DNA of 61,704 bases, counting the filler. It is 7 parts of 7 records of this genome, joined end to end, with 100 filler letters (N's around TTAATTAATTAA, not from the genome) between each part and the next. Parts side by side here need not be neighbours in the genome. Positions count along the whole stretch, not along the records: positions 53,271 to 61,704 come from SRR31156797_20505; 6 more parts are not named here. One strand, given 5' to 3'. A program made the translations under genes and the position numbers. This document shows, in pieces, positions 29,321 through 61,514 of this stretch. The notes under the pieces were generated by a model that worked only from the letters and a program-made list of their open reading frames with translations, did no database searches and was not told where the DNA came from. How positions within the stretch are numbered: position 1 is the stretch's first letter; each line of letters starts with the position of its first letter.

Positions 29321-29378
29321 GATTCTCCACAGGAGGGGGATCATCTCTCCCTCCTCATCCATTAAAAAAGAGGAAAGA

Positions 29379-30386
29379 ATGGAAGTTGAAACCATGGATA
29401 AACCGAATTTGAATCTAAAGGCCCTGTTTCTCAGGTTCAGGGAGATGACGACCGTCTCGGGCCAGATTATATCGTTGCTTATCGTATTTCTGATATTCGC
29501 CGTGGGAACAGGCGGGAACTACCTGTCCCTGAACAATATCGTCACCATACTCAGCCTTTCCGGGATCCCCATGATCATATGTCTCGGATTGCATCAGGTC
29601 ATCATCATGGGAGCCATGGACCTGTCCCTTGAAGGGATCATCGCTTTCTGCGCCGTCATATGCGGACTGCTGATCAGGAATCCCGAGACAACCATGGATA
29701 TTGGAATGGGAATATTCCCCGTCGTCATCATCGTGGGCATGGTCTGCGGTTATTTCAGCGGGTTGATCAATACAAAGCTGAAGATGCCCTCGTTTATCTC
29801 CACCCTGGGCATCAGCTGGATCACCTTCGGGCTGGCGGTCATCTTCAGCGGGGGGATCTCCATCCCCCTGGAGGACGACAGGTTCCAGCACATTATGAAC
29901 GGAACGATCGCCGGATTCCCCAACATCACCCTGATCGCTCTCTTCATATTCGCGCTCATGTATGTGTTCCAGAAGAAATCCAGCCTGGGGAAGCACATGT
30001 ACGCCATCGGGGGGGATGAGATCCTGGCCCGTCAGGCCGGAGTCAATGTAGACCGGGTCAAGATCATCGTCTTCGCCCTGGGCGGGGCCATCTACGGCAT
30101 CGCGGCGCTCTTTCTCGTCGCCCGGCTGAACAGCTCGGCCGCCCGCCTGGGGAACAACCTGCTCTTCCCCGCCATGACGGCTGTGGCGGTCGGAGGCGTT
30201 TCCCTGTCCGGCGGAGTGGGGACGGCCCTGAACGCCGTTCTGGGTACCCTGATCGTAACGTCCCTCAACAACGGAATGGTGCTGATGCATATCAGTCCCT
30301 TTATGCAGAATGCGGTGAACGGGGTCGTGCTGATCACGGCGGTGGCTCTGACCATCGACCGCAAGAAGATCGGACTTATCAAGTAG
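29379..30386 (+). CDS. Monosaccharide ABC permease (RbsC-like)
   Basis: GAMDLS, YAIGGDEILARQAGV, AVAVGGVSLSGG. Confidence 0.93.
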   Translation: MEVETMDKPNLNLKALFLRFREMTTVSGQIISLLIVFLIFAVGTGGNYLSLNNIVTILSLSGIPMIICLGLHQVIIMGAMDLSLEGIIAFCAVICGLLIRNPETTMDIGMGIFPVVIIVGMVCGYFSGLINTKLKMPSFISTLGISWITFGLAVIFSGGISIPLEDDRFQHIMNGTIAGFPNITLIALFIFALMYVFQKKSSLGKHMYAIGGDEILARQAGVNVDRVKIIVFALGGAIYGIAALFLVARLNSSAARLGNNLLFPAMTAVAVGGVSLSGGVGTALNAVLGTLIVTSLNNGMVLMHISPFMQNAVNGVVLITAVALTIDRKKIGLIK

Positions 30387-30399
30387 GCGGGAGAGGATT

Positions 30400-31920
30400 A
30401 TGAGTAAAGAATCGGTCATCAGCCTTAAGAACGTGACCAAGAGTTTTCCCGGTGTCAAGGCGCTCAAGGGATTCGATATGGAGATCTACAGGAACGAGAT
30501 CCTCGGGCTTGTAGGGGAAAACGGCGCCGGGAAGTCGACCCTGATGAAGATCCTGATCGGCATGTATCAGCTGGATCAGGGGACCATGTCCCTCCGGGGG
30601 GAAGAGCTCGTCTTCAGGGACGCCCAGCAGTCCATAAGACAGGGGGTGGGGATGGTGTTCCAGGAGGGATGCATGATTCCCAATCTGACCATCGCGGAGA
30701 ACCTGTTCCTCTGCCATGAACAGGATTTCAAATCCTGGGGACTGATCAGCAATAGGAAGATGACAGAGGCCGCCCGGGAGGCCTTAAAGCATGTGGAGCT
30801 GGACGTCGACCCCTCTACGCCCGTGCACAAGCTTACGCCGGCCCGGAGGCAGATGGTGGAGATCGCCAGGCTGCTCCTGCTCTGCCGCATGTACGGAAAG
30901 GAGAACCCCGTGCTTATCCTTGACGAGCCCACGACGGTTCTGCTGGAAAAGGAGGTGGACACCCTGTTCCGCATCCTCAATGAGATCAAAAAGGAAGCGA
31001 CCATCATACTGATCTCCCACAGGCTGGAAGAGGTTATCGAGAACTCTGACCGCATCGTCGTGCTCAAGGACGGCGACTATGTCACCGAGATGCCCGGCGG
31101 CGAGGCCGATATCCCCACCATCGAACAGCTGATGGTGGGCCGGGATCTGGCGGACGAGCACTACAGGGAGAGCGAGCAGACCAGGGGTGAGGAGGATACC
31201 TGCCTCTCCGTGAGGGCGCTCGGCCTGAAGGGGAAATTCGAGCCCATCTCCTTTGACGTCAGGAAGGGGGAGATCGTCAGCCTGGTCGGATTGATCGGTT
31301 CGGGGAAGGAGGAGCTCTGCCACTGCATAACGGGGGTGGAGACCGCCGACGAAGGCGAGATCCGTATGGACGGGAAGCCGGTGCGGATCAGCAATCCCAA
31401 TGATTCCATACAGAACAAGATCGGATACATTCCCATAGACAGGCGCAAAGAGGGCCTGGCCACCGATATGGATGTCTCCGAGAACATCAACCTGCTGGTC
31501 CTCGACCGTTTCAAGAAGGGCGGCCTGCTGAATCCGTCGGGAGAGAGGAAGAACGCATCCTACTGGGCCGGCGAGACCAGGGTGAAAACCCCTTCCCTGA
31601 AACAGAAGTGCGGAAACCTGAGCGGAGGGAACCAGCAGAAGGTCGTTCTTTCCAAGTGGCTGACCGCCGACTCCCGGCTCCTTATCCTGGAGCACCCCAC
31701 CAGGGGAATCGACGTTGGCGCGAAGGATGAGATCTACCACCATATCAGGGAGCTGGCCAGGAGCGGAAAGTCCATGCTGATCATGTGCGATACCCTGGAA
31801 GAGGATATCGGGCTGTGCAACCGCATGATCATCATGAAAGACGGCCGCTTCGTCAGAGAGCTGGACTGCCCGAAAGAGAGCAAGCCGACTCCGGCCGACA
31901 TTATCTCATCCATAGTATAG
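30400..31920 (+). CDS. Monosaccharide ABC ATPase (RbsA-like, two NBDs)
   Basis: GENGAGKST, LILDEPT, LSGGNQQKV, PTRGIDVGAK. Confidence 0.95.
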   Translation: MSKESVISLKNVTKSFPGVKALKGFDMEIYRNEILGLVGENGAGKSTLMKILIGMYQLDQGTMSLRGEELVFRDAQQSIRQGVGMVFQEGCMIPNLTIAENLFLCHEQDFKSWGLISNRKMTEAAREALKHVELDVDPSTPVHKLTPARRQMVEIARLLLLCRMYGKENPVLILDEPTTVLLEKEVDTLFRILNEIKKEATIILISHRLEEVIENSDRIVVLKDGDYVTEMPGGEADIPTIEQLMVGRDLADEHYRESEQTRGEEDTCLSVRALGLKGKFEPISFDVRKGEIVSLVGLIGSGKEELCHCITGVETADEGEIRMDGKPVRISNPNDSIQNKIGYIPIDRRKEGLATDMDVSENINLLVLDRFKKGGLLNPSGERKNASYWAGETRVKTPSLKQKCGNLSGGNQQKVVLSKWLTADSRLLILEHPTRGIDVGAKDEIYHHIRELARSGKSMLIMCDTLEEDIGLCNRMIIMKDGRFVRELDCPKESKPTPADIISSIV

Positions 31921-31930
31921 GAGTTCCAAG

Positions 31931-32911
31931 ATGAATAACCTTTTCAAGACCCTGTCGAGGGGGAAAGACGGTGCGGAGAAGAAGCAGATTCCCTCCATCT
32001 TTTACGCCCTGGGAATGCTGATCTTCTTTGTTCTGGTGTTCTCACTGGTCAATCCCTCGTTCTTCAAGCGCTATAATGTTATGACCATCGGGACGTCCAG
32101 CGTGATTCTCCTCGCCGTCGGCATGGGGCAGGTGTTCACCATCCTGACGGGAGGCATCGACCTGTCCGTGGGCGGGATCATGTCCCTGGTGTCCGTCGTC
32201 TTTATGATCACCCTGGAGCCCTTGGGCTACGGAGCCTATCCGGTCGCCCTGCTCGTCGGCCTGGCGGCCGGTTTCCTGAACGGCTACCTCAATGCCAAGC
32301 TCAGGATCCCTTCGTTTATCACGACCCTGGGGAGCGGGGGGATATTCGTCAGCATCGCCTATATGATCTCGGCCAAGCCCTTGTCCGCGCCGGCGCCGAG
32401 CTTCGGGGTACTGGAGTTTATCAACGGAAGCGCTCTGGGCGTTAAGAACATCATGCTTATCGGCGTGGTCATATTCGTTATCTTCTACATCATCCAGACC
32501 TATACGATCACGGGACGGCATATCATGTTTATGGGAAGCAACGAAAAGATGTCCTGGATGAGCGGCCTGGATATCTTCAAGCTCCGGGTACTGGCGTTCA
32601 CCCTGTCGGGTATCGGCGCCGGTCTGGCGGGGATCATGCTCTCCTCCACCCTCTACAGCGGATACCCCACCATGGGGAACGTCTATGTGCTCAACTCCAT
32701 CGCCACGGTCGTGGTGGGGGGGACGGCCATGACGGGAGGGGCCGGAGGGATTCTGAATACCCTTGTGGGCGCTCTTATCATGAGCGTGATCAACAACGGC
32801 ATGAACGTCATCGGCGTCGATGTGTACGCGCAGCAGAGCTTCCTGGGCGTGCTGATCATCATCGCCGTGGCCATCAGCTTCGACAGAAAGAAACTGACCG
32901 TAATCAAATAG
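31931..32911 (+). CDS. Monosaccharide ABC permease
   Basis: GGIDLSVG, TVVVGGTAMTGG. Confidence 0.93.
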   Translation: MNNLFKTLSRGKDGAEKKQIPSIFYALGMLIFFVLVFSLVNPSFFKRYNVMTIGTSSVILLAVGMGQVFTILTGGIDLSVGGIMSLVSVVFMITLEPLGYGAYPVALLVGLAAGFLNGYLNAKLRIPSFITTLGSGGIFVSIAYMISAKPLSAPAPSFGVLEFINGSALGVKNIMLIGVVIFVIFYIIQTYTITGRHIMFMGSNEKMSWMSGLDIFKLRVLAFTLSGIGAGLAGIMLSSTLYSGYPTMGNVYVLNSIATVVVGGTAMTGGAGGILNTLVGALIMSVINNGMNVIGVDVYAQQSFLGVLIIIAVAISFDRKKLTVIK

Positions 32912-37171: not shown

Positions 37172-37214
37172 CTGAAACGTTTTAGGTTATATGGAGGTAA
37201 AGCGTTCCGCCCCT

Positions 37215-38275
37215 ATGAATAAGACGATTCTCATTGTAGACGACAACTTCAGGGCCTTTAAAAGCCTTACCCTCAACTTCAGGTCCCAGGGCTACGACAC
37301 CCGCTACGCCTCATGCGGAGAGGAGGCCGTCTCCGCCCTGAGACGGGAGCCCTTCTGCATCGTCCTTCTCGACCTTATGCTGGGGGATGAGGACGGCCTG
37401 GATGTGCTGGAACGGATCAGGGCCCTCTCCGACGCCCCCCCCGTGATCATGATCACCGGTTACGCCGGCATTGATTCGGCGGTGGACTCCATCAAAAGGG
37501 GGGCCTTCAACTATCTGCAGAAACCCGTTGATTTCGATCGTCTGCTGGATATGATCGAGACGGTCATGGCGGGAGAGTCGGGGGGAGTCCGGCTTCAGGC
37601 CTTCGAAACAGAGCTCTATAAAACCCGGTCTCCCGAGATGAAGCGGGTGATGGAAAAGGCCCGGAAGCTCGCGGCCACCGACTTCCCCGTGCTGATCCTG
37701 GGAGAGAACGGAACGGGGAAGGAGCTGATGGCCGAGTACATCCACCGGCACTCGGTCCGGAAGGACGCGGATCTCCATAAGATCAACTGCGCCGCCTTTC
37801 AGGAGAGCATCCTGGACAACGAGCTGTTCGGCCATAACAAAGGGGCCTACACCGGGGCCGACGACGATTTTAAGGGAATCTTCGAACTGGCCGACGGCCA
37901 GACCCTCTTTATGGACGAGATCGGGGACATGTCCCTGGCCATACAGGCCAAGATCCTCAGGACATTGCAGAACCGCGAGATCCGCCGCATAGGCGGGAAC
38001 AGGGTCATCACCGTGGACGTCCGCTTCATCGCGGCCACCAACAAGGACATCGAGGCTATGATCGGAGCGAAGGAGTTCCGGCAGGACCTCTACTACCGCC
38101 TGAACACGGCGATCGTCCACATCCCCCCTCTCCGGGAACGACTGGATGACATAGACTATCTGGCGGATATCTTCCTGAAGGATCAGCCCGGCGGCGATGA
38201 CAGGGGCTTCTCGGAAGAGGTGTTGGAGATCTTCCGGGAATACGGCTGGCCCGGCAATGTGAGGGAGCTGAAGAA
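37215..38275 (+). CDS. NtrC-family sigma54 response regulator, 3'-truncated
   Basis: REC, GENGTGKE, GAYTGA, LFMDEIGD, WPGNVREL; start could be 37191. Confidence 0.94.
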
Positions 38276-38375
38276 NNNNNNNNNNNNNNNNNNNNNNNNN
38301 NNNNNNNNNNNNNNNNNNNTTAATTAATTAANNNNNNNNNNNNNNNNNNNNNNNNNNNNNNNNNNNNNNNNNNNN
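38276..38375. other. Artificial contig spacer
   Basis: N44-TTAATTAATTAA-N44. Confidence 0.99.
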
Positions 38376-50905: not shown

Positions 50906-51584
50906 TGAAGTAGCTGTTGTTTACAGTATAGGTGATTCAGAAATTAAGCTAACACCGAGTATAGTACAAAATTACATAGTAGGCTCAAATGCAGAAATAA
51001 GCATGCCTGAGTTTAAGATGTTTACCGAGCTATGTAAGGTTAGAAAATTAAATCCATTTCTGAAAGAAGCATACTGCATCAAATACGGCAATGAACCAGC
51101 ACAGGTAGTAGTTGGTAAAGATGTTTTCGTCAAGAGGGCTGTATTGCATCCAGATTACGATGGTAAGGAGTCAGGGCTAATTGTAAAGAACGATAAGGGC
51201 AAGATAGAAGAGCGACAAGGGTGCTTCTATTTAGATGATGAAGAGATAGTAGGTGCATGGGCTAGAGTGTTCAGAAAGAGCTGGGAGCATCCTGAATATG
51301 TAAGTGTTGCCTTTGATGAGGTTGCAAAGCGTAAGAAAAGCGGTGAACTAAACAGTAACTGGCTAAGACAGGGGGCAACTATGGTTGTAAAAGTTGCAAC
51401 AGTTAGAGCACTTAGAGAATCTTTTGTTGATGATTTAGGCGGTATGTATGTCGAGGAAGAGTTTACACAGGTTGATAATTCCATAGTAGATATTACTCCT
51501 TCACAAGACCCTGTATTCACTGAACCAATACCACCTCAGAACGACTTCACAGACAACGATCAGGTAACTCTAGATGATTTATGA
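50892..51584 (+). CDS. bet: Phage recombination protein Bet (RecT/Red-beta family)
   Basis: LCKVRKLNPFLKEAYCIKYG...VGAWARVFRK...W....ATMVVKVATVRALRESF...GMY. Confidence 0.9.
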   Translation: MKLSNEVAVVYSIGDSEIKLTPSIVQNYIVGSNAEISMPEFKMFTELCKVRKLNPFLKEAYCIKYGNEPAQVVVGKDVFVKRAVLHPDYDGKESGLIVKNDKGKIEERQGCFYLDDEEIVGAWARVFRKSWEHPEYVSVAFDEVAKRKKSGELNSNWLRQGATMVVKVATVRALRESFVDDLGGMYVEEEFTQVDNSIVDITPSQDPVFTEPIPPQNDFTDNDQVTLDDL

Positions 51585-52215
51585 TGTCATAGCTTCATCC
51601 AGTTATGGTAATGCTACGGTCATCGAGAATACAGTTCTAATAGACTGTGGTATGCCGTACAAAGCTATATCAAAATATGTGGACAGGCTAAAAATAGTTT
51701 TGCTTACCCATAGTCATAAAGATCATTTTAATAAGAAAACAATAGCTAGGCTATCAAGACAAAGACCTATGCTGAGATTTGGCTGCGGTAAATGGCTTGT
51801 ACTTCATTTGCTGGATTGCGGAGTATCAAAAGCCAATATTGATGTCTATGATATGGATGTTTGCTATAACTATAAATCATTAAAAATCATTGCATTTAAG
51901 TTATTTCATAACGTTCCAAACTGTGGATATAAGCTGATGATTAACCATCAAAAGGCTATCTACGCAACAGACACTAACAGGATAGAAACCACAGCTAAGA
52001 ACTATGATTTGTACTTAATTGAAGCTAACTATGGCGATAAGGAAATCCAGCAGAGAATAAGAAATAAACGCTTTCAGCCATATATATATGAGCTTGGTGT
52101 GCTGAAAAACCACTTGTCAGAATCAAAGGCATTTGACTTTATTATGAGTAATGCAGGTCCAAATAGTAGGTACAGGCTTATGCATCAGCATGCAGAGAGA
52201 AAGAAGGCGAATTAA
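51574..52215 (+). CDS. MBL-fold metallo-hydrolase, putative phage exonuclease partner
   Basis: ASSSYGN, LIDCG, THSHKDH, YATDT, IEANY, NHLS. Confidence 0.88.
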   Translation: MIYDVIASSSYGNATVIENTVLIDCGMPYKAISKYVDRLKIVLLTHSHKDHFNKKTIARLSRQRPMLRFGCGKWLVLHLLDCGVSKANIDVYDMDVCYNYKSLKIIAFKLFHNVPNCGYKLMINHQKAIYATDTNRIETTAKNYDLYLIEANYGDKEIQQRIRNKRFQPYIYELGVLKNHLSESKAFDFIMSNAGPNSRYRLMHQHAERKKAN

Positions 52216-52490
52216 TGAAGTCGATTATACAAGATGATAAAGCCTGCTATATAACAGGCTCTACAGACAACTTACATGAACATCATATTTTTGGTGGCAG
52301 TAATCGTAAATGGAGTGAAAAATTCGGTTTGAAGGTATGGCTTAGAGCAGACTGGCACAATATGTCTGACTATGGAGTACATTTCAATAAAAATTTTGAC
52401 AGACAACTTAAGAAAACAGGGCAGATGTTTTTTGAAAAAACATATTCACATGAAGAATTTATGCAGTATTTCAGGAGGAACTATCTATGA
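52215..52490 (+). CDS. Small HNH-like phage protein
   Basis: CYITG...HEHHIFGGSNRKWSEKFGLKVWL...H...GVH. Confidence 0.7.
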   Translation: MKSIIQDDKACYITGSTDNLHEHHIFGGSNRKWSEKFGLKVWLRADWHNMSDYGVHFNKNFDRQLKKTGQMFFEKTYSHEEFMQYFRRNYL

Positions 52491-52861
52491 CACAAGCATC
52501 AAGTGAGTTTAAAGAAGTTAAGAAACTAGAGGGCAGTCCTTTTCAGATAGCGTGTGAAGAAGATTGCAAGATATATTCAAGAATGCTTGATGTATATATG
52601 GGACTGCAAGGTGATACTGTAAATGCTGCACAGGCGAATAATATCGCAAATACAGCTCTTGTACTTGCTTCCAGATGGTCAGATATTTGTTCTTACTCGA
52701 AAAGCATAAGCCTGAGATTTGGGTTTGGAAAGTCTGATTTTAGTATGTGGGCACATGAACGCTATTCCGTGCTAAAGGATATCCATATACATGCCAGAAT
52801 GATATGGAGTAAAGCGGAGGACGAATACAGGGAAACCATGAAATATGGCGGACAGACTTAG
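52487..52861 (+). CDS. Phage hypothetical protein
   Basis: ATGA-coupled ORF in the early operon. Confidence 0.65.
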   Translation: MTQASSEFKEVKKLEGSPFQIACEEDCKIYSRMLDVYMGLQGDTVNAAQANNIANTALVLASRWSDICSYSKSISLRFGFGKSDFSMWAHERYSVLKDIHIHARMIWSKAEDEYRETMKYGGQT

Positions 52862-52867
52862 AGAGGT

Positions 52868-53170
52868 ATGGATATGAATAACAACAACTACTATACAATC
52901 CAAGGCTGGATGAGGAATATGCTCCAATTAAAGGGGAATGAGTTAATGCTTTTTGCATTGATATATGGATTTTCACAAGATGGAGAAACGGTATTCAATG
53001 GAAGCTTAACATATATGGAAAAAGCAATAGGAGCAACAAGACCTACTGTTGTTAAGACACTAAACGCATTAGTAGAGAAAGGACTGATTACACGAATCAG
53101 CAGTAAAAAAGGTAATAAATACTTTACTAGTAAAGAAACTAAACTAGTTAAAAATCTTTCAGAAACTAGT
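52868..53170 (+). CDS. Phage replication initiator (N-terminal wHTH), 3'-truncated
   Basis: NYYTIQGWM...LKGNELMLFALIYGFSQDGE..FNGSL.Y. Confidence 0.8.
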
Positions 53171-53270
53171 NNNNNNNNNNNNNNNNNNNNNNNNNNNNNN
53201 NNNNNNNNNNNNNNTTAATTAATTAANNNNNNNNNNNNNNNNNNNNNNNNNNNNNNNNNNNNNNNNNNNN
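53171..53270. other. Artificial contig spacer
   Basis: N44-TTAATTAATTAA-N44. Confidence 0.99.
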
Positions 53271-53467
53271 GTGAAACTCCACTCCCGGAGTCCGCCTGAA
53301 TTCCCTCATGGGGATAATCGAATAGAAGCCTTGTACATGCATATTGAAATCGCTCATACCTGAATTCTAGTGCCCGGGAAAAGGGAAAGCAAACAGGATA
53401 TCCCGGGGGGAACGGGATAGGAACAGGAAAGCCAGAGGCCCTTGCTGCCGGATAGGGTATCGCCTTG

Positions 53468-55267
53468 CTACCCAAGGACGGGAATGGTTATCTTGAACTC
53501 GCATCCCCCCTTCTCCAGGTTCCGGAATTGCATCTCGCCCTTGTATTTTCTGATGATTCCGTAACTCATGGGGAGGCCCAGCCCCATATTGCTCCCGGTT
53601 TTCTCCTTTTTCGTCGAATAAAAAGGCAGAAAGATCGATTCCCTGTCCCTCTCGCTTATTCCGGGGCCGCTGTCCGTAATCAAGAGGATCAGGGCGTCTT
53701 TTTCCGTCTCCGTCTCGATCTCGATCCGGCCGCCCCCCTGCATAACCTCAAAACTGTTCTTGATCAGATTCAGCAGAACCTGTCGGATCTCAGTCTTGCC
53801 GGCGTCTATGAAGATCTCATCGTAAGAAGAGCCGAAACGGCATTGGATCTTCCGCTCCCCCGCAGCGGGTTCCAGCAGGGTCAGGGTCTGTCGGATAAGC
53901 TGATTCACATCGAAGACGGTCGTCCTGCTCTCCCTGCTTCCCGAAAAAGAGACCAGGTTGGAGACGATTTGCTTGATCCCGTCCATCTCCTCTTCAAGCA
54001 TGACCACGACCTCGGAGGCCTTTTCCCGGGGAGGGTTCATCCTCAGAAAACTGAGATAGTTGTAGATGATTTCCAGGGGATTGTTAATCTCATGAGCCAC
54101 CCCCGCCGCCAGAAGGCCCAGGGAAGCCAGGTTCTCGGACAGGTTCATCCTCTGCCGCATCTCTTCCTGTTCGGTGATGTCCTCGATGATCGTTATGTTT
54201 CCGATGGGAAAGCGGCCGTCGAAGATCGGGTAGATCTTGATATTCGTCAGGACCTCTCCTATCTTCAGATGAAGCAGATTGGATTCCTCGTTCCTGTTGA
54301 AACAGTGCTGGATCCGTTCCAGAGAGTCTTTGTCGGGGATGATGACATCCAGCGGGCGATTCAGAAAAGCTTCAGGTTCGGAATGGAAGAAAAGCATTCC
54401 CTGGTCATTTATCATCTTAATCCGATTGTCGTCATCCGTAACGATCAGGGTGATGGGCAGATTCTTCAGTATCGCCTCGTTGTAACGCAGAAGCTGATAG
54501 AACTCCTTGTTCAGATCCTCCGACTCGGCGCTCCGGGCCACCTGTGTATAGCAGAGCTTGATCAGATTCAGACGGTCCATATTCCCCGTCGCATCGGTCA
54601 GAAGGATCTTCCCGTCCCGGATGACAGAGATTTTATCAGCCAGATCATACACGTCGTCGATGCGGTGGCTGATGCAGATGACAGCCAGTCCTTCGGCGGC
54701 TTTCCGTTTCAGGATGCGGATGACCTTGTCGAAATGCGCTCCGTTCAGCTTTGCCAGCGCTTCGTCGATGATCAGCAACTTCGGCTCTCTGAATAGGCAG
54801 CGCAGGAAGTCCAAAACCACCTTTTCCGACATGGTCAGGCCGGCATACTGGTCATGGGGATCGAGATCGAAACCGTATTCCCTTATGACCTTCTCCGCCT
54901 GCTGATACATTTTCCTTCTGCCGTTAAAGGGAAAGGGACGGAAGATCTTTTCGGGAAGGAACATATTCTCGGCAACCGTGAAGTAATCGATGAGCCCTTC
55001 GTCCTGAAAGATGATCTGGACCCCCGGATTCTGCATGGACTGGAACCTGCGGAACCGCATCTCCCTGCTGTCCCAGACTATGGTTCCGTCGGAGGGTTTC
55101 TGATTGAGGGCCATCAGCATACCGATCGTGGATTTTCCCGTCCCCCTGTCGCCGATCAGCGCATGGATCTCTCCCCTTCTCAGGGAAAAATCAAGACCCC
55201 TGATCTCCGGGAGCCCTTCCGATGAAAGGCTGATGTTTCTGAGTTCCAGGATCGGATCAGCCGTCAT
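53468..55267 (-). CDS. Fusion protein: sugar-ABC ATPase domain, PAS, histidine kinase (HisKA-HATPase)
   Basis: Walker A GDRGTGKST, Q-loop IIFQD, Walker B LLIIDE, H-loop ISHR; PAS (ILKNLPITLIVTD...ITIIEDITE); H-box GVAHEINNPL, QVLLNLIKNS, DSGPGI, FLPFYSTK, GLGL. Confidence 0.92.
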   Translation of the reverse strand: MTADPILELRNISLSSEGLPEIRGLDFSLRRGEIHALIGDRGTGKSTIGMLMALNQKPSDGTIVWDSREMRFRRFQSMQNPGVQIIFQDEGLIDYFTVAENMFLPEKIFRPFPFNGRRKMYQQAEKVIREYGFDLDPHDQYAGLTMSEKVVLDFLRCLFREPKLLIIDEALAKLNGAHFDKVIRILKRKAAEGLAVICISHRIDDVYDLADKISVIRDGKILLTDATGNMDRLNLIKLCYTQVARSAESEDLNKEFYQLLRYNEAILKNLPITLIVTDDDNRIKMINDQGMLFFHSEPEAFLNRPLDVIIPDKDSLERIQHCFNRNEESNLLHLKIGEVLTNIKIYPIFDGRFPIGNITIIEDITEQEEMRQRMNLSENLASLGLLAAGVAHEINNPLEIIYNYLSFLRMNPPREKASEVVVMLEEEMDGIKQIVSNLVSFSGSRESRTTVFDVNQLIRQTLTLLEPAAGERKIQCRFGSSYDEIFIDAGKTEIRQVLLNLIKNSFEVMQGGGRIEIETETEKDALILLITDSGPGISERDRESIFLPFYSTKKEKTGSNMGLGLPMSYGIIRKYKGEMQFRNLEKGGCEFKITIPVLG

Positions 55268-56549
55268 GGCCCATTCCGAATTTATCCAGCTTGTTGTAGA
55301 GGGTTTTCCGGCTGATGTTCAGCATCTCTGCGGCGCGCTTCTTGTTGTTTCCGGCGGCGCTGAGGGTTTGGAGTATCAGGGTCCTTTCCTGCTCCTCAAG
55401 GGAGCTGAAGGAGGAGGGCATATCTTCCTGTTCCCATATGCCATGGGGAAGGTCCGCCGGGGATATCTCATCCCCCGTAGCCAGGGCTCCCGCGTAATGG
55501 ACCGCGTTTCTCAGTTCCCTGATGTTTCCGGGCCAGGGATAGTGGAGCAAGGCGGCGACGGCTTCGCTGGAGAAGCGCAGAGGCCGTTCGGTAAAATGCT
55601 GTTCCAGGAAATGCTCTGCCAGCGGAAGTATGTCCTCGGGCCTCTCCTTGAGGGAAGGGATATGCAGAATGGCCGTGCTCAGACGGTAGTACAGATCCTC
55701 CCGGAAGCGCTTCAGACCCATCATCTCTTTCAGGTTTTTATTGGTCGCCCCGATGAAACGGACATCGATGCGAATGTTCCCGTTGCCGCCGATACGGCGG
55801 ATTTCCTGATTCTGAAGGGTTCTGAGAATCTTAGCCTGGGTCTGCAGGGACATATCCCCCAGCTCGTCCATGAACAGGGTCCCCCCGTCGGATCGCTCAA
55901 AGATACCGGCGAACCGACTGTCCGCCCCCGTATAAGCCCCTTTCTCATGTCCGAAAAGCTCGTTGTCCAGAAGATTCTCCGGGAAGGCCGCGCAGTTGAT
56001 GCTGTGCAGCTCCCTTGAGCCGCGCTTTGAATGCTGATGCAGGAAGTAGGCGAGCCTCTCCTTTCCCGTTCCGCTGTCTCCGGTAATGAGAACCGGAAAA
56101 TCCGTTTGAGCCAGCCGTTCCGCCTTCGCAAGCAGATTGACCATAATCTTGGACTTGGTGATGATCCGCTCTCCCTCCCCGGGCTCCCTGCGCTTGAGGG
56201 TATGCTCAATGATCTTCAGAAGATTGGGGAAGTTCAAGGGTTTCTGTACGTAATCGGATGCGCCCCGCTTCATGGCGATCACCGCCGTTTCGATGGATCC
56301 GTATCCGGTTATCATGATAACCGGCAGCTTGGGATACAGACGCCTTATCTTCACAAGGACGTCCAAACCGCTTTCCTCTTTCAGGGAGAGATCCAGTAAA
56401 ACGATATCCGGCAGGCTTCTGCCCAGCTTCCCGAGGGCATCGGAACTGTTCAGCGCGTAATGATAACTGAAACCGAGCTGTTGAAAATTCATCTCAAGGC
56501 TCTTACAGAGTTTCTCTTTGTCGTCGATTACAAGTACTGCTTTATTCAT
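55257..56549 (-). CDS. NtrC-family sigma54 response regulator
   Basis: REC, GDSGTGKE, GAYTGA, WPGNIREL, Fis HTH; start reassigned to MNKAV 56549; overlaps the kinase start. Confidence 0.95.
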   Translation of the reverse strand: MNKAVLVIDDKEKLCKSLEMNFQQLGFSYHYALNSSDALGKLGRSLPDIVLLDLSLKEESGLDVLVKIRRLYPKLPVIMITGYGSIETAVIAMKRGASDYVQKPLNFPNLLKIIEHTLKRREPGEGERIITKSKIMVNLLAKAERLAQTDFPVLITGDSGTGKERLAYFLHQHSKRGSRELHSINCAAFPENLLDNELFGHEKGAYTGADSRFAGIFERSDGGTLFMDELGDMSLQTQAKILRTLQNQEIRRIGGNGNIRIDVRFIGATNKNLKEMMGLKRFREDLYYRLSTAILHIPSLKERPEDILPLAEHFLEQHFTERPLRFSSEAVAALLHYPWPGNIRELRNAVHYAGALATGDEISPADLPHGIWEQEDMPSSFSSLEEQERTLILQTLSAAGNNKKRAAEMLNISRKTLYNKLDKFGMGHDG

Positions 56550-56628
56550 GGTCCCGCCCGAAGAAGAGTGACATCCGCCGATGGATCTGTCAAGAGAAAA
56601 ATCAGTACCCGAAAAAGGACGGAGAAGC

Positions 56629-56680
56629 TGTGTAAAACTTACACATATCAGGGCCCCAGGGGCTGTGTATTTTCTACCCA
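56629..56680. promoter_or_regulatory. Tandem bEBP enhancer sites TGTGTA-N5-TAC(A/C)CA
   Basis: TGTGTAAAACTTACACA (56629-56645) and TGTGTATTTTCTACCCA (56664-56680), 35 bp apart and about 110-160 bp upstream of the -24 element. Confidence 0.75.
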
Positions 56681-56788
56681 TACCCCACCGGTTCATCATA
56701 GAGTCATGGCGGATTCGGGAAAGGGATCCGGCCTTTAATACCGGGCAGCCAAGCATTTAAAAAGAAAAAGTTTTCAATGTTCAGAAAT

Positions 56789-56804
56789 TGGCATATCATT
56801 TGCA
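56789..56804 (+). promoter_or_regulatory. Sigma54 -24/-12 promoter of the ABC operon
   Basis: TGGCAT-ATCAT-TTGCA with exact GG-N10-GC spacing, 33 nt before the SBP start codon. Confidence 0.88.
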
Positions 56805-56837
56805 TTTGTAGCGGAAAACAACAGAAAGGAGATTTAT

Positions 56838-57791
56838 ATGAAAAAGAATCTGGTACTCGCATTGCTGATTGCCGCAATCCTTACGGTCGCTCCCGCGCTG
56901 TTTGCGGGCGGACAGGCCGATAAGGCCGACGACGGGAAAACCACGGTAGGTTTCGCTCAGATCAAGGAAGACAGTCCCTGGCGGACAACCGAAACCAACT
57001 CGGTTCAGCAGGAAGCCGAGCGCCTGGGTATCGAGCTGAAGCTTTCCGTAACGGATCAGGCCGGCCAGATCGCCGCCCTCCGTGACTTCATCGCCCAGGG
57101 CGTTGACGGCATCCTTCTCGCTCCTCAGACCGCAAGCGGCTGGGATGAAGTTCTGATGGAAGCCAAGGACGCAGGCATTCCCGTGGTCCTTCTGGACAGG
57201 GGCCTCGATTCGCCCGAAGAGCTCTGGGTCACTCAGATCTCATCGGACTTCGCGTTCGAGGGACGGGAAGCCGGAAAATGGATTGCCGAGCGACTGGACG
57301 GCAAGGGAAAGGTCGTTGAGCTCTTCGGCGATCCCGCCGCAGATCCCGCCATCAAGCGGAGCGAAGGCTTTATGGAGATCATGGCCGACTATCCCGGTAT
57401 CAAGGTGGTGGAATCCAAGACCGGAGAATGGAGCCAGGACAAGGGCCGCCAGGTCGTGGAAGCATGGCTTGCCGCCGGCGTGGAGTTTGACCTTATCTAC
57501 GCCCATAACGACGGTATGGCTCTGGGCGCCATCGAGGCCCTCAAGGCCGCCGGCAAGGATCCCGGAAAGGATGTTCAGATCATCTCCATCGATGCGATAA
57601 AGGCCGCCTTCGAGGCCATCGAGCGGGGCGATATGAACGCGACCGTCGAGTGCAGTCCCCTTCTGGGTCCCATGGGTTTTGAAGCCCTTCTGGCCGCTAT
57701 TGACGGCAAAGAGGTTGATCAGTACATCATCACCCCCGACTCCCTCTATGACGAGAGCAACTACAAAGATCATCCCACCGGCGGATTCTGA
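56838..57791 (+). CDS. Sugar ABC solute-binding protein, YtfQ (galactofuranose)-like
   Basis: VGFAQ..E.SPWRT, GWDEVLMEAKDAGIPV.LLDR, SDFAFEG, AHNDGMALGA, ATVECSPLLGP. Confidence 0.88.
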   Translation: MKKNLVLALLIAAILTVAPALFAGGQADKADDGKTTVGFAQIKEDSPWRTTETNSVQQEAERLGIELKLSVTDQAGQIAALRDFIAQGVDGILLAPQTASGWDEVLMEAKDAGIPVVLLDRGLDSPEELWVTQISSDFAFEGREAGKWIAERLDGKGKVVELFGDPAADPAIKRSEGFMEIMADYPGIKVVESKTGEWSQDKGRQVVEAWLAAGVEFDLIYAHNDGMALGAIEALKAAGKDPGKDVQIISIDAIKAAFEAIERGDMNATVECSPLLGPMGFEALLAAIDGKEVDQYIITPDSLYDESNYKDHPTGGF

Positions 57792-57821
57792 TTTCCCGTC
57801 AGGTCCTTAGCGTAATGAACC

Positions 57822-57851
57822 GGACCGGTCTTCCGGAAGGAGGGCCGGTCC
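57822..57851 (+). terminator. Intercistronic stem-loop after the SBP gene (mRNA stabiliser or partial terminator)
   Basis: GGACCGGTCTTCC-GGAA-GGAGGGCCGGTCC followed by TTT. Confidence 0.55.
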
Positions 57852-57938
57852 TTTCTCGGAATGCGTTCGCAAATGAAATGAAAGGGCGATCCCCTTTGCG
57901 GGACGCGGACTCTTATATGTAAAGAAAAGGATGAAATC

Positions 57939-59438
57939 ATGGGAGAAATCCTTAGCGTAAAAAAAATCAACAAGTCCTTTGTCGGTGTGAAGGCTCTGGA
58001 CGATGTGGATTTCGACCTGGAAGAGGGAGAGATCCACGGCTTGATGGGAGAGAACGGAGCGGGGAAATCCACGCTCATAAAGGTGATCACAGGCTTTTAC
58101 ACCCGGGATAGCGGATCGGTCTATCTGAACGATGAAGCCGTCTCCTTTCAGTCCCCCAACGAAGCGGTGGATCATGGGATCAGCACGGTCTATCAGGAAA
58201 TCAACCTGATCCCCATGCTATCGGTGGCAGAGAATATCTTTCTCGGAAGGCAGCCGAAGAGAAAGAACGGAGCCATCGACTGGAAGAGCATGAACCGGCG
58301 GGCCGCCGAGGCGGTGAGACGCCTGGAGCTGGACCTGGACGTGACCCTTCCCCTGAACAGCTACTCCGTAGCCATTCAGCAGATGGTATCCATAGCCAGG
58401 GCCCTGGACGTGCAGGCGAAGGTTCTGATCCTCGATGAGCCGACGTCCAGCCTGGACCAGTTTGAGGTGGAGCAGCTGTTCAAGGTGATGAGGAAACTCC
58501 GAAGCCGGGGGATCAGCATCATCTTCATCACCCATTTCCTGGATCAGGTGTTCGAGATAACCGACCGGATTTCCGTCCTGCGGGACGGCAGATTCGTAGG
58601 CGTATTCCAGACCCGTGGCCTGGACCGGATCCAACTGATATCGCAGATGCTGGGAAAGGAGCTGAAAGAGCTGGACAGCTCTCTGTGGAGGGACGGATCC
58701 TCGGAGAGCGGAGAAACCCTGGTCTCTCTGAAGAACGTCGCCAAGGCCGAGTACATCCAGCCCTTTGACCTTGAGCTGAAGAAGGGCGAGGTCCTGGGAC
58801 TGGCGGGCCTTCTCGGCTCCGGTCGCACGGAGATAGCGAATCTCCTCTACGCGGTGACCCGCCCCGACAGCGGAGAGATCAGAGTAAAGGGCGTCAGGGC
58901 CAGGCTGAAGTCACCCCGGGACGCCATCTTCGCAGGCATGGGCTACTGCCCCGAAGACCGGAAAGAGGAGGGCATCATCCCCGAGCTCAGCGTCCGGGAA
59001 AATATCATTCTGGCCCTTCAGGCCAAACGGGGGATCTTTCGTTTTCTGTCAAAAAGGAAGCGCGACGAGATCGCGGAAAAGTACATCAGGGCCCTGGGGA
59101 TAAAGACCCCCGACGCCGACAAGAGCATCAAGGGCCTGAGCGGCGGGAACCAGCAGAAGTGCATCCTCGCCCGATGGCTGGCCGCCAATCCCGAGCTCCT
59201 CATACTGGACGAGCCCACGCGCGGTATCGATGTGGGAGCGAAGGTGGAGATCCAGAAGGAAATCCTGGACCTGAAGAACAAGGGGCTTTCCATATTATTC
59301 ATCTCTTCAGAACTGGAGGAGGTCGTGCGGGTGTCCAACCGCGTCTCCATTCTGCGGGACCGAAAGGTCGTGGGAGAGTTAAACTCTACGGAAATAAGCG
59401 AGCAGGCAATCATGCGCGCTATAGCTGAAAATGAATAA
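57939..59438 (+). CDS. Sugar ABC ATPase, YtfR-like
   Basis: GENGAGKST, YSVAIQQMV, LSGGNQQK, DEPTRGIDVGAK. Confidence 0.94.
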   Translation: MGEILSVKKINKSFVGVKALDDVDFDLEEGEIHGLMGENGAGKSTLIKVITGFYTRDSGSVYLNDEAVSFQSPNEAVDHGISTVYQEINLIPMLSVAENIFLGRQPKRKNGAIDWKSMNRRAAEAVRRLELDLDVTLPLNSYSVAIQQMVSIARALDVQAKVLILDEPTSSLDQFEVEQLFKVMRKLRSRGISIIFITHFLDQVFEITDRISVLRDGRFVGVFQTRGLDRIQLISQMLGKELKELDSSLWRDGSSESGETLVSLKNVAKAEYIQPFDLELKKGEVLGLAGLLGSGRTEIANLLYAVTRPDSGEIRVKGVRARLKSPRDAIFAGMGYCPEDRKEEGIIPELSVRENIILALQAKRGIFRFLSKRKRDEIAEKYIRALGIKTPDADKSIKGLSGGNQQKCILARWLAANPELLILDEPTRGIDVGAKVEIQKEILDLKNKGLSILFISSELEEVVRVSNRVSILRDRKVVGELNSTEISEQAIMRAIAENE

Positions 59439-60516
59439 TAAAAAGGACTCTAATATGAATAAAACACTGTTAAGCATACAGGATCCCCTGGCCAAGCGCC
59501 TGCTGTGGGCGCTGTTCGGCCTCTTCGGGATTCTGGTATTGAACCTGCTTATTTCCCCGGAGTTCTTCGAGGTCTCCCTTCAGGAAGGGGGCAGGCTGCA
59601 CGGAAACCTGATAAGCATACTTCGCAACGGCGCCCGGGTCGCCATCCTCGCCGTGGGCATGACCCTGGTCTACGCCACGGGGGGAATAGACCTTTCCGTG
59701 GGATCGGTGATGGCCGTGTCCGGCGGAATGGCCGCCCTGATTATCAGGCCGGGGTATCTGCAGGGCCTGCCGGTGGTGGATCCGCAGCCGGCCCTGATCA
59801 GCATCATCCTCCTGCCCCTGCTTATATCGATGCTCCTGGGACTGATCAACGGCGTCATGGTGGCCGTGGTGAAGGTACAGCCTATCATCGCGACGCTGAT
59901 CATGATGTACACGGCCCGGGGGCTGGCCGCGCTGATGGTCAAAGGCCAGACCCCCACCTACTACGGCGTGCCCTTCACCAGGATCGGAACCGGCTACTTC
60001 GCCGGTTTTCCCATACCCGTATGGATCGCCCTGATCATATTCCTGACCACCCTGCTCATAGTGAAAAGGACGGCCATCGGGATCTTTATAGAGGCGGTGG
60101 GAGAGAACAAGACGGCCAGCCGCTTCGTCGGAATCAAAACGACCTCCATCATCATCTCGTCCTATGTGTTCTGCGCCCTGCTGGCGGGCGTCGCGGGGCT
60201 TGTCCATGTCTCCGGCGAGTCCAGTACCAATCCCTACAGCACGGGCTTCATGATCGAGCTGGACGCCATCGCGGCGGTCATCATAGGCGGCAGTATCAAC
60301 GGAGGCCGCTTTACCCTGACCGGATCGCTGATCGGCGCCTATATCATACAGAGCCTGTCCACCACGGTTTACTTTCAGCGCTGGCCCTACGAGTATTCCC
60401 TCGTGTTCAAGGCCATTGTCATCATCGCGGTGGCTTTGATCCAATCCGAAGCCCTGCGGAAGAAACTGATGGAACTGTTCAGGACGCCCGGCGGAGCGAA
60501 AGGAGAGGAACGATGA
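59431..60516 (+). CDS. Sugar ABC permease, YtfT-like
   Basis: GRLHGNLISIL, ATGGIDLSVG, QPIIATLI, ELDAIAAVIIGG. Confidence 0.9.
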   Translation: MNNKKDSNMNKTLLSIQDPLAKRLLWALFGLFGILVLNLLISPEFFEVSLQEGGRLHGNLISILRNGARVAILAVGMTLVYATGGIDLSVGSVMAVSGGMAALIIRPGYLQGLPVVDPQPALISIILLPLLISMLLGLINGVMVAVVKVQPIIATLIMMYTARGLAALMVKGQTPTYYGVPFTRIGTGYFAGFPIPVWIALIIFLTTLLIVKRTAIGIFIEAVGENKTASRFVGIKTTSIIISSYVFCALLAGVAGLVHVSGESSTNPYSTGFMIELDAIAAVIIGGSINGGRFTLTGSLIGAYIIQSLSTTVYFQRWPYEYSLVFKAIVIIAVALIQSEALRKKLMELFRTPGGAKGEER

Positions 60517-61514
60517 ACCGGAAGCATTTACTGAAAAACCTGAGACCCAATGTCAGCAACATCCCCATTCTGACGACGGTCTTTATCTTCCTGTTGATGT
60601 ATACGGCGGCGTCTCTGCTCTTTGACGGCTTCTTCAGCCTCTATAACTTCGTCAACATCATCAAGGCCGTGGCCTATATAGGCATCATCGCCGTGGGAAT
60701 GACCTTTGTCATCATCTCGGGCGGGATAGACCTGTCCGTTGGTTCGGTGGTTGCGTTCACATCGATCTTCATTGCCAAGATGACCAACGTATGGGGTTAC
60801 CCGTCCTGGTTCTCCATGCTGATCTGCCTGGGGATAGGGATCCTCATGGGCTACATGGTCGGCGTGCTGATCGCCCATTTCGAACTGCCCCCGTTTCTGG
60901 TGACCCTGGTCATGATGTTCCTGATGCGGGGTCTGGCCTATATGGTTCACCAGGGTACGCTGAGCATACAGTCGGATCCCTTTATCTCCTTTATGAAAAG
61001 GACGGGGTTGAAATTCGGTCCCGCCAGGCTGAGCCTCTATGTGATGATTTTCTTTCTGATCCTCCTGCTGGGCATCATCGTCTCCCGATACACGAAATTC
61101 GGAAGGACCGTGTACGCCATCGGAGGGAACGAAAAATCGGCCGTAATGATGGGCCTCCCGGTCCTGCGCTCCAAGGTGCTGATCTATACGATCAGCGGTT
61201 TCCTCAGCGCCCTGGGAGGGATCGTGTTCACCATCCATGTCGCTTCGGGCAAGCCCCATAACGCCCTGGGCCTGGAACTGGATGTCATCGCCTCGGTCGT
61301 CATAGGAGGGACGCTCCTGTCCGGCGGTTCGGGTTACGTCATAGGAAGCTTCTTCGGCGTCCTGATCTACGGACTGGTCTTCAAGCTGCCCTCCTATATC
61401 TCTTCCTTCAGGGAGTGGTGGGCCCAGATCCTTGTGGGACTGCTGGTTCTCGGATTTATACTGATACAGACCTATATAACCAGGAACTCCTCAAAACTGG
61501 CTAGACGCTCCTAG
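60513..61514 (+). CDS. Sugar ABC permease, YjfF-like
   Basis: GMTFVIISGGIDLSVG, YAIGGNEKSAVMMGLPV, ELDVIASVVIGG; true start is ATG 60513, not 59505. Confidence 0.92.
   Translation: MNRKHLLKNLRPNVSNIPILTTVFIFLLMYTAASLLFDGFFSLYNFVNIIKAVAYIGIIAVGMTFVIISGGIDLSVGSVVAFTSIFIAKMTNVWGYPSWFSMLICLGIGILMGYMVGVLIAHFELPPFLVTLVMMFLMRGLAYMVHQGTLSIQSDPFISFMKRTGLKFGPARLSLYVMIFFLILLLGIIVSRYTKFGRTVYAIGGNEKSAVMMGLPVLRSKVLIYTISGFLSALGGIVFTIHVASGKPHNALGLELDVIASVVIGGTLLSGGSGYVIGSFFGVLIYGLVFKLPSYISSFREWWAQILVGLLVLGFILIQTYITRNSSKLARRS

Follow-up and report, generated by a model that had tools for sequence, protein, structure and literature searches.

The subject of this report is a gene at positions 53468 to 55267 of the window, by which we mean the whole 61,704-nucleotide (nt) stretch of DNA that was analysed. 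The gene encodes a protein in which a nucleotide-binding domain (NBD) of the ATP-binding cassette (ABC) sugar-importer type is joined to a cytoplasmic PAS-histidine kinase, and the fusion is genuine. Two points are secure in silico, namely that the kinase and the sigma-54 activator encoded beside it are predicted to constitute a two-component switch for a divergent, sigma-54-driven sugar importer operon, and that the input module of the kinase is, by its sequence, an ATP-binding derivative of the N-terminal half of an importer ATPase. The fuller reading, a sigma-54 two-component switch whose ATP-binding NBD reads its own importer, is held here tentatively, at somewhat short of an even chance.

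An earlier note on this DNA, made from the letters alone, had described one uninterrupted open reading frame (ORF) of 599 amino acids (aa) at this place, and such an ORF is indeed present, with an ATG start and no internal stops, on the minus strand (the note had left the strand unstated). All eight motifs that the note had quoted recur in the translation in the order and places it gave, with GEIHALIGDRGTGKST at residue 32, IIFQD at 85, TVAENMFL at 97, LTMSEK at 144, LLIIDE at 164, ISHRIDDV at 199, ISVIRDG at 213 and AHEINNPL at 391. Pfam recognises ABC_tran at residues 23-171 (E 3.7e-21), PAS_9 at 275-366 (E 3.6e-6), HisKA at 383-442 (E 2.2e-9) and HATPase_c at 492-597 (E 5.8e-20), and the gene is accordingly divided as follows.

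53468..55267, minus strand: NBD-PAS histidine kinase gene (P0001), from the 599-aa ORF and its Pfam domains.
54533..55267, minus strand: N-terminal ABC NBD of the CUT2 N-half type (residues 1-245), from NCBIfam YtfR, BLASTP, the tree and motif counts; its elements are Walker A at 39-47, Q-loop Q88, an altered signature at 144-149, Walker B at 164-169 and H-loop H201.
54455..54577, minus strand: NBD-to-PAS linker (residues 231-271), the best-conserved segment of the protein.
54170..54454, minus strand: cytoplasmic PAS domain (residues 272-366), from Pfam PAS_9 at 275-366 and PAS_4 at 267-368.
53471..54169, minus strand: kinase core (residues 367-599), DHp/HisKA with H392 followed by HATPase_c, from Pfam.

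The highest 19-residue Kyte-Doolittle mean in the kinase is only 1.07, as compared with 2.79 in the adjacent permease, which agrees with the earlier statement that no membrane segment is present, and the protein is therefore considered to be soluble. An AlphaFold2 model of the monomer (mean predicted local distance difference test score 76.3, predicted template modelling score 0.43) has good domains, linkers that score below 50 and low inter-domain confidence, and it displays a PAS-like strand/helix pattern. The kinase core is best matched in NCBIfam by AtoS (NF008468; residues 251-597, 206.5 bits against a cut-off of 646), and ZraS is also matched (NF007688; residues 367-597, 135.5 bits against a cut-off of 479), such that the protein is the equivalog of neither. 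Residue counts, here and below, were made over 120 full-length family members with P0016 omitted; H392, N500, N504, D532, G534, G562 and G564, which make up the H-, N-, G1- and G2-boxes, are invariant in 120 of 120, and on the sequence of these boxes the kinase is assigned to the HisKA class.

With respect to the genuineness of the fusion, an architecture search returned PF00005, PF00512 and PF02518 together in 119 of the 120 best homologues, all of them full-length fusions (593-646 aa, 39-89% identical), and the exception is a 527-aa protein on a 4-kb contig. The note had allowed for a lack of full-length homologues; the fusion proves to be conserved in a large family. Furthermore, the junction between the NBD and the PAS domain (residue ~245, about nt 54532) is spanned by contigs from two other public studies: record 12 of X2 covers 53479-54594 with 6 differences from the window, and record 19 of X3 covers 54320-54746 with 2 (junction support was counted from the X2 and X3 contigs, and run X1, from which this DNA may itself derive, was not counted). 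A chimeric assembly is ruled out by the full-length homologues together with these independent junction-spanning contigs.

The genes around the kinase that bear upon its function are the following.

55257..56549, minus strand: sigma-54-dependent response regulator (bacterial enhancer-binding protein), 430 aa, with Pfam Response_reg, Sigma54_activat, AAA_lid_14 and HTH_8.
56627..56682, no strand assigned: two copies of a 21-nt element with a TGTGTAA/TTACACA palindrome, from a repeat search.
56789..56804, plus strand: sigma-54 type -24/-12 promoter TGGCATATCATTTGCA, with one mismatch to TGGCAC-N5-TTGCW.
56838..57791, plus strand: periplasmic sugar-binding protein, YtfQ-like (Pfam Peripla_BP_4, E 3.6e-56; NCBIfam YtfQ, 274 bits against 510).
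57939..59438, plus strand: two-NBD transporter ATPase, YtfR-like (two Pfam ABC_tran domains; NCBIfam YtfR, 699 bits against 850).
59431..60516, plus strand: permease 1, YtfT-like (Pfam BPD_transp_2; NCBIfam YtfT, 268 bits against 535).
60513..61514, plus strand: permease 2, YjfF-like (NCBIfam YjfF, 325.7 bits against 363), its ATG overlapping the stop of permease 1.

The activator gene lies upstream of the kinase on the same strand and overlaps the kinase start by 11 nt. The likely start codon of this gene is the ATG at 56549, and its open frame as such extends to 56756; the translation begins MNKAVLVIDD and holds D53, a GAYTGA loop and a helix-turn-helix (HTH), and orthologues are 437-455 aa long. 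The Sigma54_activat domain is recognised by Pfam at E 1.7e-62, and the best NCBIfam matches (AtoC, NtrC and ZraR) all score under their equivalog cut-offs. From the receiver (REC) aspartate, the AAA+ loop and the Fis-type HTH, the protein is assigned to the NtrC class of sigma-54 two-component activators. The ABC operon (binding protein, two-NBD ATPase and two permeases) diverges from the kinase/activator pair, and TGGCATATCATTTGCA stands 34 nt ahead of the binding-protein ATG; the copies of the 21-nt palindromic element sit about 110-160 nt upstream of this promoter and are plausible candidates for the activator binding sites. None of the four subunits reaches the NCBIfam equivalog cut-offs for the YtfQRT-YjfF galactofuranose importer, and judged by these scores the operon is best called YtfQRT/YjfF-like, with no substrate assigned.

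The arrangement is not peculiar to the window. A survey of gene context covered 72 family genes from three phyla, with up to 9 kb fetched on each side and phmmer run with the window proteins as queries. A sigma-54 activator gene is found directly upstream of the kinase in 72 of 72, and CUT2-type sugar ABC genes lie in the fetched flanks of 65, so that the homologues are linked to sugar ABC operons, a linkage whose absence the note had named as a ground for refutation. Sites of the -24/-12 type were accepted when they matched the consensus at 9 or more of its 11 letters, GG and GC being obligatory. Such sites face the ABC operon at 18 of 22 hand-mapped loci; a script located them within 1.3 kb for 40 of 59 cassettes and within 400 nt for 30 of the 59, against a background of 57 sites in 897,554 positions (0.025 per 400 nt). 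Thirteen of the 19 cassettes missed by the script are Planctomycetota loci, in which the consensus may differ, and rpoN was found in all five carrier genomes tested. The binding proteins of the cassettes differ widely (23-265 bits by phmmer against that of the window), and the cassettes accordingly serve different sugars. As many as 6 paralogues occur in a single genome, each next to an importer of its own.

Full-length relatives were found in 13 of 401 sampled Spirochaetota genomes, in 7 of 401 genomes in the phylum of a Planctomycetota genome, and in 7 of 9 genomes in the phylum of a KSB3 genome, with 2-6 copies in each of the latter; source names among the 120 best homologues add Desulfomarina and 'Spartobacteria'. 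A metagenome scan with a single protein returned one further full-length locus (L130), which seems to come from the same organism as L118, and a scan of genome contigs with kinase-core patterns gave 7 full-length fusions (L001-L006 and L028) among 80 loci kept, the rest being mostly ordinary kinases. DNA nearly identical to window positions 53300-57900, with a few differences per kb, occurs in coral or coral-reef metagenome runs from several studies.

As to the origin of the NBD, kinase residues 6-236 align by BLASTP, collinear and gap-free, with residues 4-234 of the ATPase at 57939-59438 (28% identity, E 9e-31), in keeping with the collinearity that the note had reported, and the match to the C-terminal half of the same ATPase is weaker (27% identity, E 4e-14). 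NCBIfam matches kinase residues 6-247 over their full length to the first half of YtfR, XylG and AraG (E 1e-39 to 1e-42), with scores far under every CUT2 equivalog cut-off (144.8 bits against 850 for YtfR). A search of the Protein Data Bank (PDB) with the kinase NBD gave matches to generic ABC ATPases only. The NBD tree holds 79 sequences, comprising 36 kinase NBDs, 23 N halves, 17 C halves and 3 single-NBD proteins; the halves were taken from ATPases that adjoin kinases, and 27 of the 40 members of the kinase-homologue alignment A1 were omitted. In this tree the 36 kinase NBDs form one clade (Shimodaira-Hasegawa-like approximate likelihood-ratio support 99) nested in the N-half group of CUT2 ATPases, which is itself split from the C halves (support 93 and 99), and in no case is a kinase NBD nearest to its own neighbouring ATPase. 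This makes the fusion an old and probably single event and excludes a recent joining with the neighbouring ATPase. The note's picture of a kinase that had replaced the second NBD does not survive as a recent event at the window locus; what the tree favours is that an NBD of the N type was captured once, long ago, from a CUT2 ATPase. The same architecture and gene context recur in a deeper subfamily, whose kinases are 26-32% identical to that of the window. One locus of this subfamily, L125 (G118:C34, 5703-12124), carries activator, kinase, binding protein, permease and ATPase genes in that order on one strand, and its ATPase has a single NBD of the N-like kind (265 aa) in place of two; against the N half of the window ATPase, the L125 kinase NBD is 42% identical and the single-NBD ATPase 37%.

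The residues that the NBD has kept and lost are instructive. The window Walker A is GDRGTGKST (residues 39-47), which fits GxxGxGK[ST], and G39, G44 and K45 of this motif, Q88 of the Q-loop and D168 of Walker B are each invariant in 120 of 120; the stretch F96-N101 is conserved as well. The catalytic E169 is kept in 98 of 120 (Ala in 17), the H-loop H201 in 109, and both are intact in only 89. The signature is degenerate, as had been suggested, being LTMSEK in the window kinase and LxLS[DE][RK] as a family consensus, as opposed to LSxGxQQ in CUT2 proteins; the second Gln of the CUT2 N-half signature, present in 100% of 23 true N halves, is variable in the kinases, and the D-loop region has been replaced (DEPT..LD to DEAL.KL[ST]). 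Conserved in the kinases only are H35/A36, an HRIDDIY stretch past the H-loop (D204 in 120 of 120, Y207 in 118 of 120) and a C-terminal helix. Mean identity of the 119 homologues to the window protein is 64% in the linker (residues 231-271), 59% in DHp, 45% in CA, 41% in PAS and 37% in the NBD core, and alignment A1 has L235, F256, N263, A265, L267, L270 and P271 of the linker invariant. A linker identity of 64% is as expected of a transmission element. Within the PAS domain the sheet is conserved, and the helical part (about residues 295-340) is variable, with indels between subfamilies. The overall pattern suggests an NBD that is under selection as an ATP binder, for which hydrolysis would be dispensable, and whose output would pass through the linker.

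This pattern bears directly on the idea that the NBD is a structural leftover or a non-sensing dimerisation scaffold, or else that the ORF is an artefact of assembly or annotation. The degenerate signature and D-loop are what such an idea would predict, but it does not account for ATP-binding residues that are invariant in all 120 members across three or more phyla, nor for the highly conserved linker between the NBD and PAS domain, and the full-length homologues and junction-spanning contigs described above speak against it also. We regard it as disfavoured and highly improbable.

If the NBD is a working part of the kinase, it is reasonable to ask what it reads. The input must be specific to the cassette, because up to six paralogues share a genome and no part of the kinase lies in the periplasm or the membrane; a reading in which the NBD senses its own importer is the most economical, because it supplies a cassette-specific input to a kinase without a membrane part. 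Under the proposed mechanism, the NBD would be an ATP-binding domain with poor or no hydrolysis, derived from the N-terminal half of a CUT2 ATPase. The pair of NBDs in a kinase dimer would engage the cytoplasmic face of the importer, at the coupling helices of the permeases and possibly at the C half of the ATPase, and the transporter would impose an ATP-dependent closing or opening of the NBDs when the sugar-loaded binding protein docks. The linker would relay this movement to the PAS and DHp helices and so set autophosphorylation at H392, phosphotransfer from H392 to D53 of the activator would follow, and the kinase/activator pair would then turn on the YtfQRT/YjfF-like importer operon from its sigma-54 promoter. 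The architecture, its conservation in the family, the operon linkage, the promoter, the motif pattern and the origin of the NBD are established in silico; that the kinase touches its transporter, and which way the signal runs, are parts of this scheme that we infer. A more particular version, in which the kinase dimer fills both NBD docking sites on some permeases to yield non-pumping sensor transporters, such that docking of the binding protein closes the ATP-loaded NBDs and switches the kinase on, seems to us rather unlikely.

The note had further proposed that the NBD docks on the sugar permeases or pairs with the ATPase, and the sole evidence that bears on this suggestion is a small co-divergence with the permease, weaker for the C half of the ATPase. 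Pairwise distances were compared across 59 cassettes in which all parts were recognised, with kinase-core and activator distances regressed out. The NBD residual is correlated with the permease (r 0.20, p 0.001) and with the ATPase C half (r 0.17, p 0.001), and less so with the ATPase N half (r 0.11) and the binding protein (r 0.08); the PAS and linker residuals show r of about 0 against the binding protein and transporter parts. When the other transporter parts were controlled too, the NBD-permease link alone remained (r 0.15, p 0.002). With near-duplicates removed (n = 42, 37 and 32), the NBD-permease correlation was 0.17-0.20 (p 0.001-0.011) and its permease-unique part 0.14-0.17 (p about 0.015), and the residual links of the activator were gone. 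Taken together, these values lend weak support to a match of the NBD, rather than the PAS domain, to the transporter. A complex prediction with NBD residues 1-250 and the two permeases (a 41-row alignment each) scored 0.01 against a mark of 0.32, which argues neither for nor against binding.

A further rival reading has a different partner, in that the kinase NBD might mimic the N half and pair head-to-tail with the C-terminal NBD of the ATPase, offering its Walker A/B and H-loop face to the canonical signature of that NBD and so reading the ATPase cycle, not the permease. What the kinases have kept is the N-half share of the consensus site (Walker A, Walker B, Q-loop and H-loop), what they have lost is the N-half share of an already degenerate second site (signature and D-loop), and in the window ATPase the C half combines a degenerate Walker A (GLLGSGRTE) with a canonical LSGGNQQ, all of which such pairing would explain. 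NBD divergence also follows the C half (r 0.17) over the N half (0.11). However, that link loses strength when near-duplicates are removed (p 0.016-0.06) and has no part unique to the C half when the permease is controlled for (r 0.08, p 0.07), the tethered N half of the ATPase itself should outcompete an outsider, and the L125 cassette has only an ATPase with a single N-like NBD. We consider this form of pairing decidedly improbable.

Several observations weigh against the proposal that the NBD reads its own importer. K50 and E89, beside Walker A and the Q-loop, are kept in true N halves and not in the kinases, and the window kinase lacks an aromatic A-loop residue that is found in 66 of 120 members. 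The co-divergence is small (r 0.15-0.2), and Mantel-type permutations are liberal for related sequences; we take the test to be liberal because nearly every region was 'significant' in a per-column version, which was diffuse and delineated no interface. A first test with 14-19 cassettes was not robust, since r was 0.31 overall and only 0.12 (p 0.17) when the main subfamily was taken by itself. The PDB held no relative of the permeases by sequence or profile and no solved CUT2 permease on which contacts could be mapped. In the tree, kinase subfamilies and transporter types have re-assorted, which is awkward for a tightly co-adapted contact; the ATPases of L128 and L111, for example, are sisters, as are those of L127 and L110, and their kinases belong to different subfamilies. 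A complete two-NBD ATPase is encoded in the window operon and in nearly all cassettes, such that no docking site is obviously vacant, and this together with the re-assortment counts against a simple replacement model. Last, 7 of the 72 family genes have no CUT2 operon in their fetched flanks. Of these, L145 and L157 lie where their contigs end, L163, L165 and L180 showed no such operon, L173 has a binding protein and a permease at a distance of 7.4 kb, and the seventh is L124. At L124 (G148:C31, 7299-16130) the 9 kb around the kinase/activator pair contain no ABC operon. The neighbours of the pair are a LacI-type gene and araB/araD/araA-like genes (arabinose catabolic), and a good -24/-12 site, TGGCATGAATATTGCA, faces away from the activator toward the gene of a Big_5/ice-binding-like protein.

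The main rival to a transporter-reading kinase is a cytoplasmic ligand, that is, an imported sugar or metabolite bound by the PAS domain or the NBD, with the NBD serving as an ATP-dependent dimerisation or energy-charge gate and making no contact with the transporter; the operon would then be induced only when sugar and ATP are both available. It is generally known that PAS domains commonly bind small ligands, and the variable, indel-bearing helical part of this one could reflect different ligands. Invariant ATP-binding residues beside catalytic residues that are not invariant are what one expects of a nucleotide sensor, the transporter has a complete ATPase of its own, and L124 lies beside sugar catabolic genes, not a transporter. 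Nonetheless, the PAS residual link to the binding protein and transporter is about 0, whereas the NBD shows one. A pure energy sensor would leave up to six importer-tied paralogues in a genome unexplained, and a cytoplasmic ligand gives no reason for the long retention of an importer N half with its Q-loop region intact (Q88 in 120 of 120, F96-N101). On balance we judge the cytoplasmic-ligand explanation unlikely.

It is useful to compare the NBD-kinase with systems already described. Published accounts describe PhoU as a bridge between the PstSCAB transporter and PhoR that acts through the PAS domain of PhoR (PMC13577022, PMC9239213, PMC4423584). The likeness is that in PhoR-PhoU-PstSCAB of E. 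coli and Salmonella a histidine kinase receives the state of an ABC importer, relayed from the cytoplasmic ATPase side, at its cytoplasmic PAS domain and has that importer in its regulon; in the window kinase the NBD stands directly ahead of the PAS domain in one chain. Unlike the window kinase, PhoR is membrane-anchored, PhoU is an adaptor, PstB is a separate working motor and the regulator is of the OmpR type. The Pfam scan of the neighbouring genes in the window turned up no PhoU-like gene. The route by which the state of a transporter reaches its kinase is still debated, the Pho system included.

In the BceRS-BceAB systems of Firmicutes, the kinase has no sensor itself; it relies on the adjacent ABC transporter for its signal and controls the expression of that transporter. 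By its sequence and gene context the window kinase fits, in part, the transporter-coupled ('co-sensor') class of the Bce, Pho, Uhp and DctA/DcuS kinds: it has no sensory part in the membrane or periplasm, its family is genetically tied to ABC operons, and a sigma-54 promoter faces the operon. Unlike the window kinase, BceS is an intramembrane-sensing kinase that touches the permease in the membrane, with no fused or shared domain, and the Bce transporter is of the peptide-resistance exporter type with an OmpR-type regulator. A covalent parallel is the 'transceptor' CbrA of Pseudomonas, which has a transporter part fused to a histidine kinase, as the window kinase does; its partner CbrB is a sigma-54 activator. 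The fused part of CbrA is a substrate-binding membrane solute carrier, whereas that of the window kinase is a soluble ABC ATP-binding domain with no membrane part.

With the CUT2 ATPases (TC 3.A.1.2) RbsA, AraG, XylG, MglA and YtfR the kinase shares an NBD that aligns with their N-terminal half; unlike them it has one NBD, a replaced signature and D-loop and catalytic residues that are not universal, and continues into PAS and kinase domains. With NtrB/AtoS-type kinases that serve NtrC-type activators it shares the PAS, HisKA and HATPase_c core and the AHEINNPL H-box; AtoS and ZraS take their input at the membrane or in the periplasm, and NtrB/AtoS-type kinases are without an NBD, unlike the window kinase. 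An ABC NBD fused to a kinase is found in none of the Pho, Bce and CbrA parallels. To our knowledge, the studied transporter-sensing kinases have partners that are separate proteins, or else the fused part is a membrane carrier. The note had known of no characterised NBD-kinase fusion, and none is described in the full-text literature searched, supplements and subscription journals lying outside that search.

An ABC NBD welded onto a PAS-kinase, whose ATP-binding residues have been preserved since very long ago in three or more phyla and which has multiplied to as many as six copies per genome next to different sugar importers, points to an unstudied coupling of sugar uptake to gene control. 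Should the more particular version with non-pumping sensor transporters hold, the kinase would be a covalent ABC 'transceptor', with specificity for the sugar set by the binding protein and the ABC power stroke reused as a signalling stroke. The protein would offer a compact, soluble and genetically simple model for the conversion of ATP-driven ABC movement into a phosphorylation signal, and also for ABC importers that double as receptors and for the insulation of paralogous cassettes from one another. Recognition of the family would correct routine annotations ('ATP-binding cassette domain-containing protein', 'histidine kinase') and would explain the control of sigma-54-dependent sugar uptake in spirochaetes, Planctomycetota and KSB3 bacteria. 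The use of NBDs as kinase inputs may be broader than this family, as is suggested by leads from the ESM Atlas (leads only, with scores of 0.82-0.84). There, the cluster of the window protein has 62 members; two ABC_tran+GAF_2+HisKA clusters, mostly of Actinomycetota, have 166 members at about 850 aa and 64 members at about 826 aa, and a 515-aa ABC_tran+HisKA form in Spirochaetota has 136 members.

Some loci depart from the simple cassette. In L116 (G005) and L172 (G610) one ABC operon lies between two divergent NBD-kinase/activator pairs, which raises the question of two sensors per importer, and two such pairs can flank or adjoin within 10 kb (L116, L172, L156 of G812, and L028). At L112 (G003:C11, 189-3846) a second CUT2 operon, distinct from the one adjacent to the NBD-kinase, lies 5 kb from it and has an 11/11 -24/-12 site 32 nt ahead of its binding-protein gene; the adjacent operon shows none. 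The window itself contains a second CUT2-like ABC operon at 28268-32911 on the plus strand (binding protein, permease, an ATPase of about 506 aa, permease) with no adjacent NBD-kinase, and further sigma-54-activator-like genes at 1053-2438 (plus strand, after a kinase-like ORF; region 2-2438) and 37191-38327 (plus strand); these assignments rest on phmmer matches with window proteins only. Downstream of the kinase, on the opposite strand, a run of short ORFs at 51574-53218 (plus strand) is unrelated to the sugar cassette and holds a metallo-beta-lactamase-fold protein (51574-52215), an HTH_36/MarR-like protein (52868-53218) and two ORFs with no Pfam match; this run could be a boundary of different origin.

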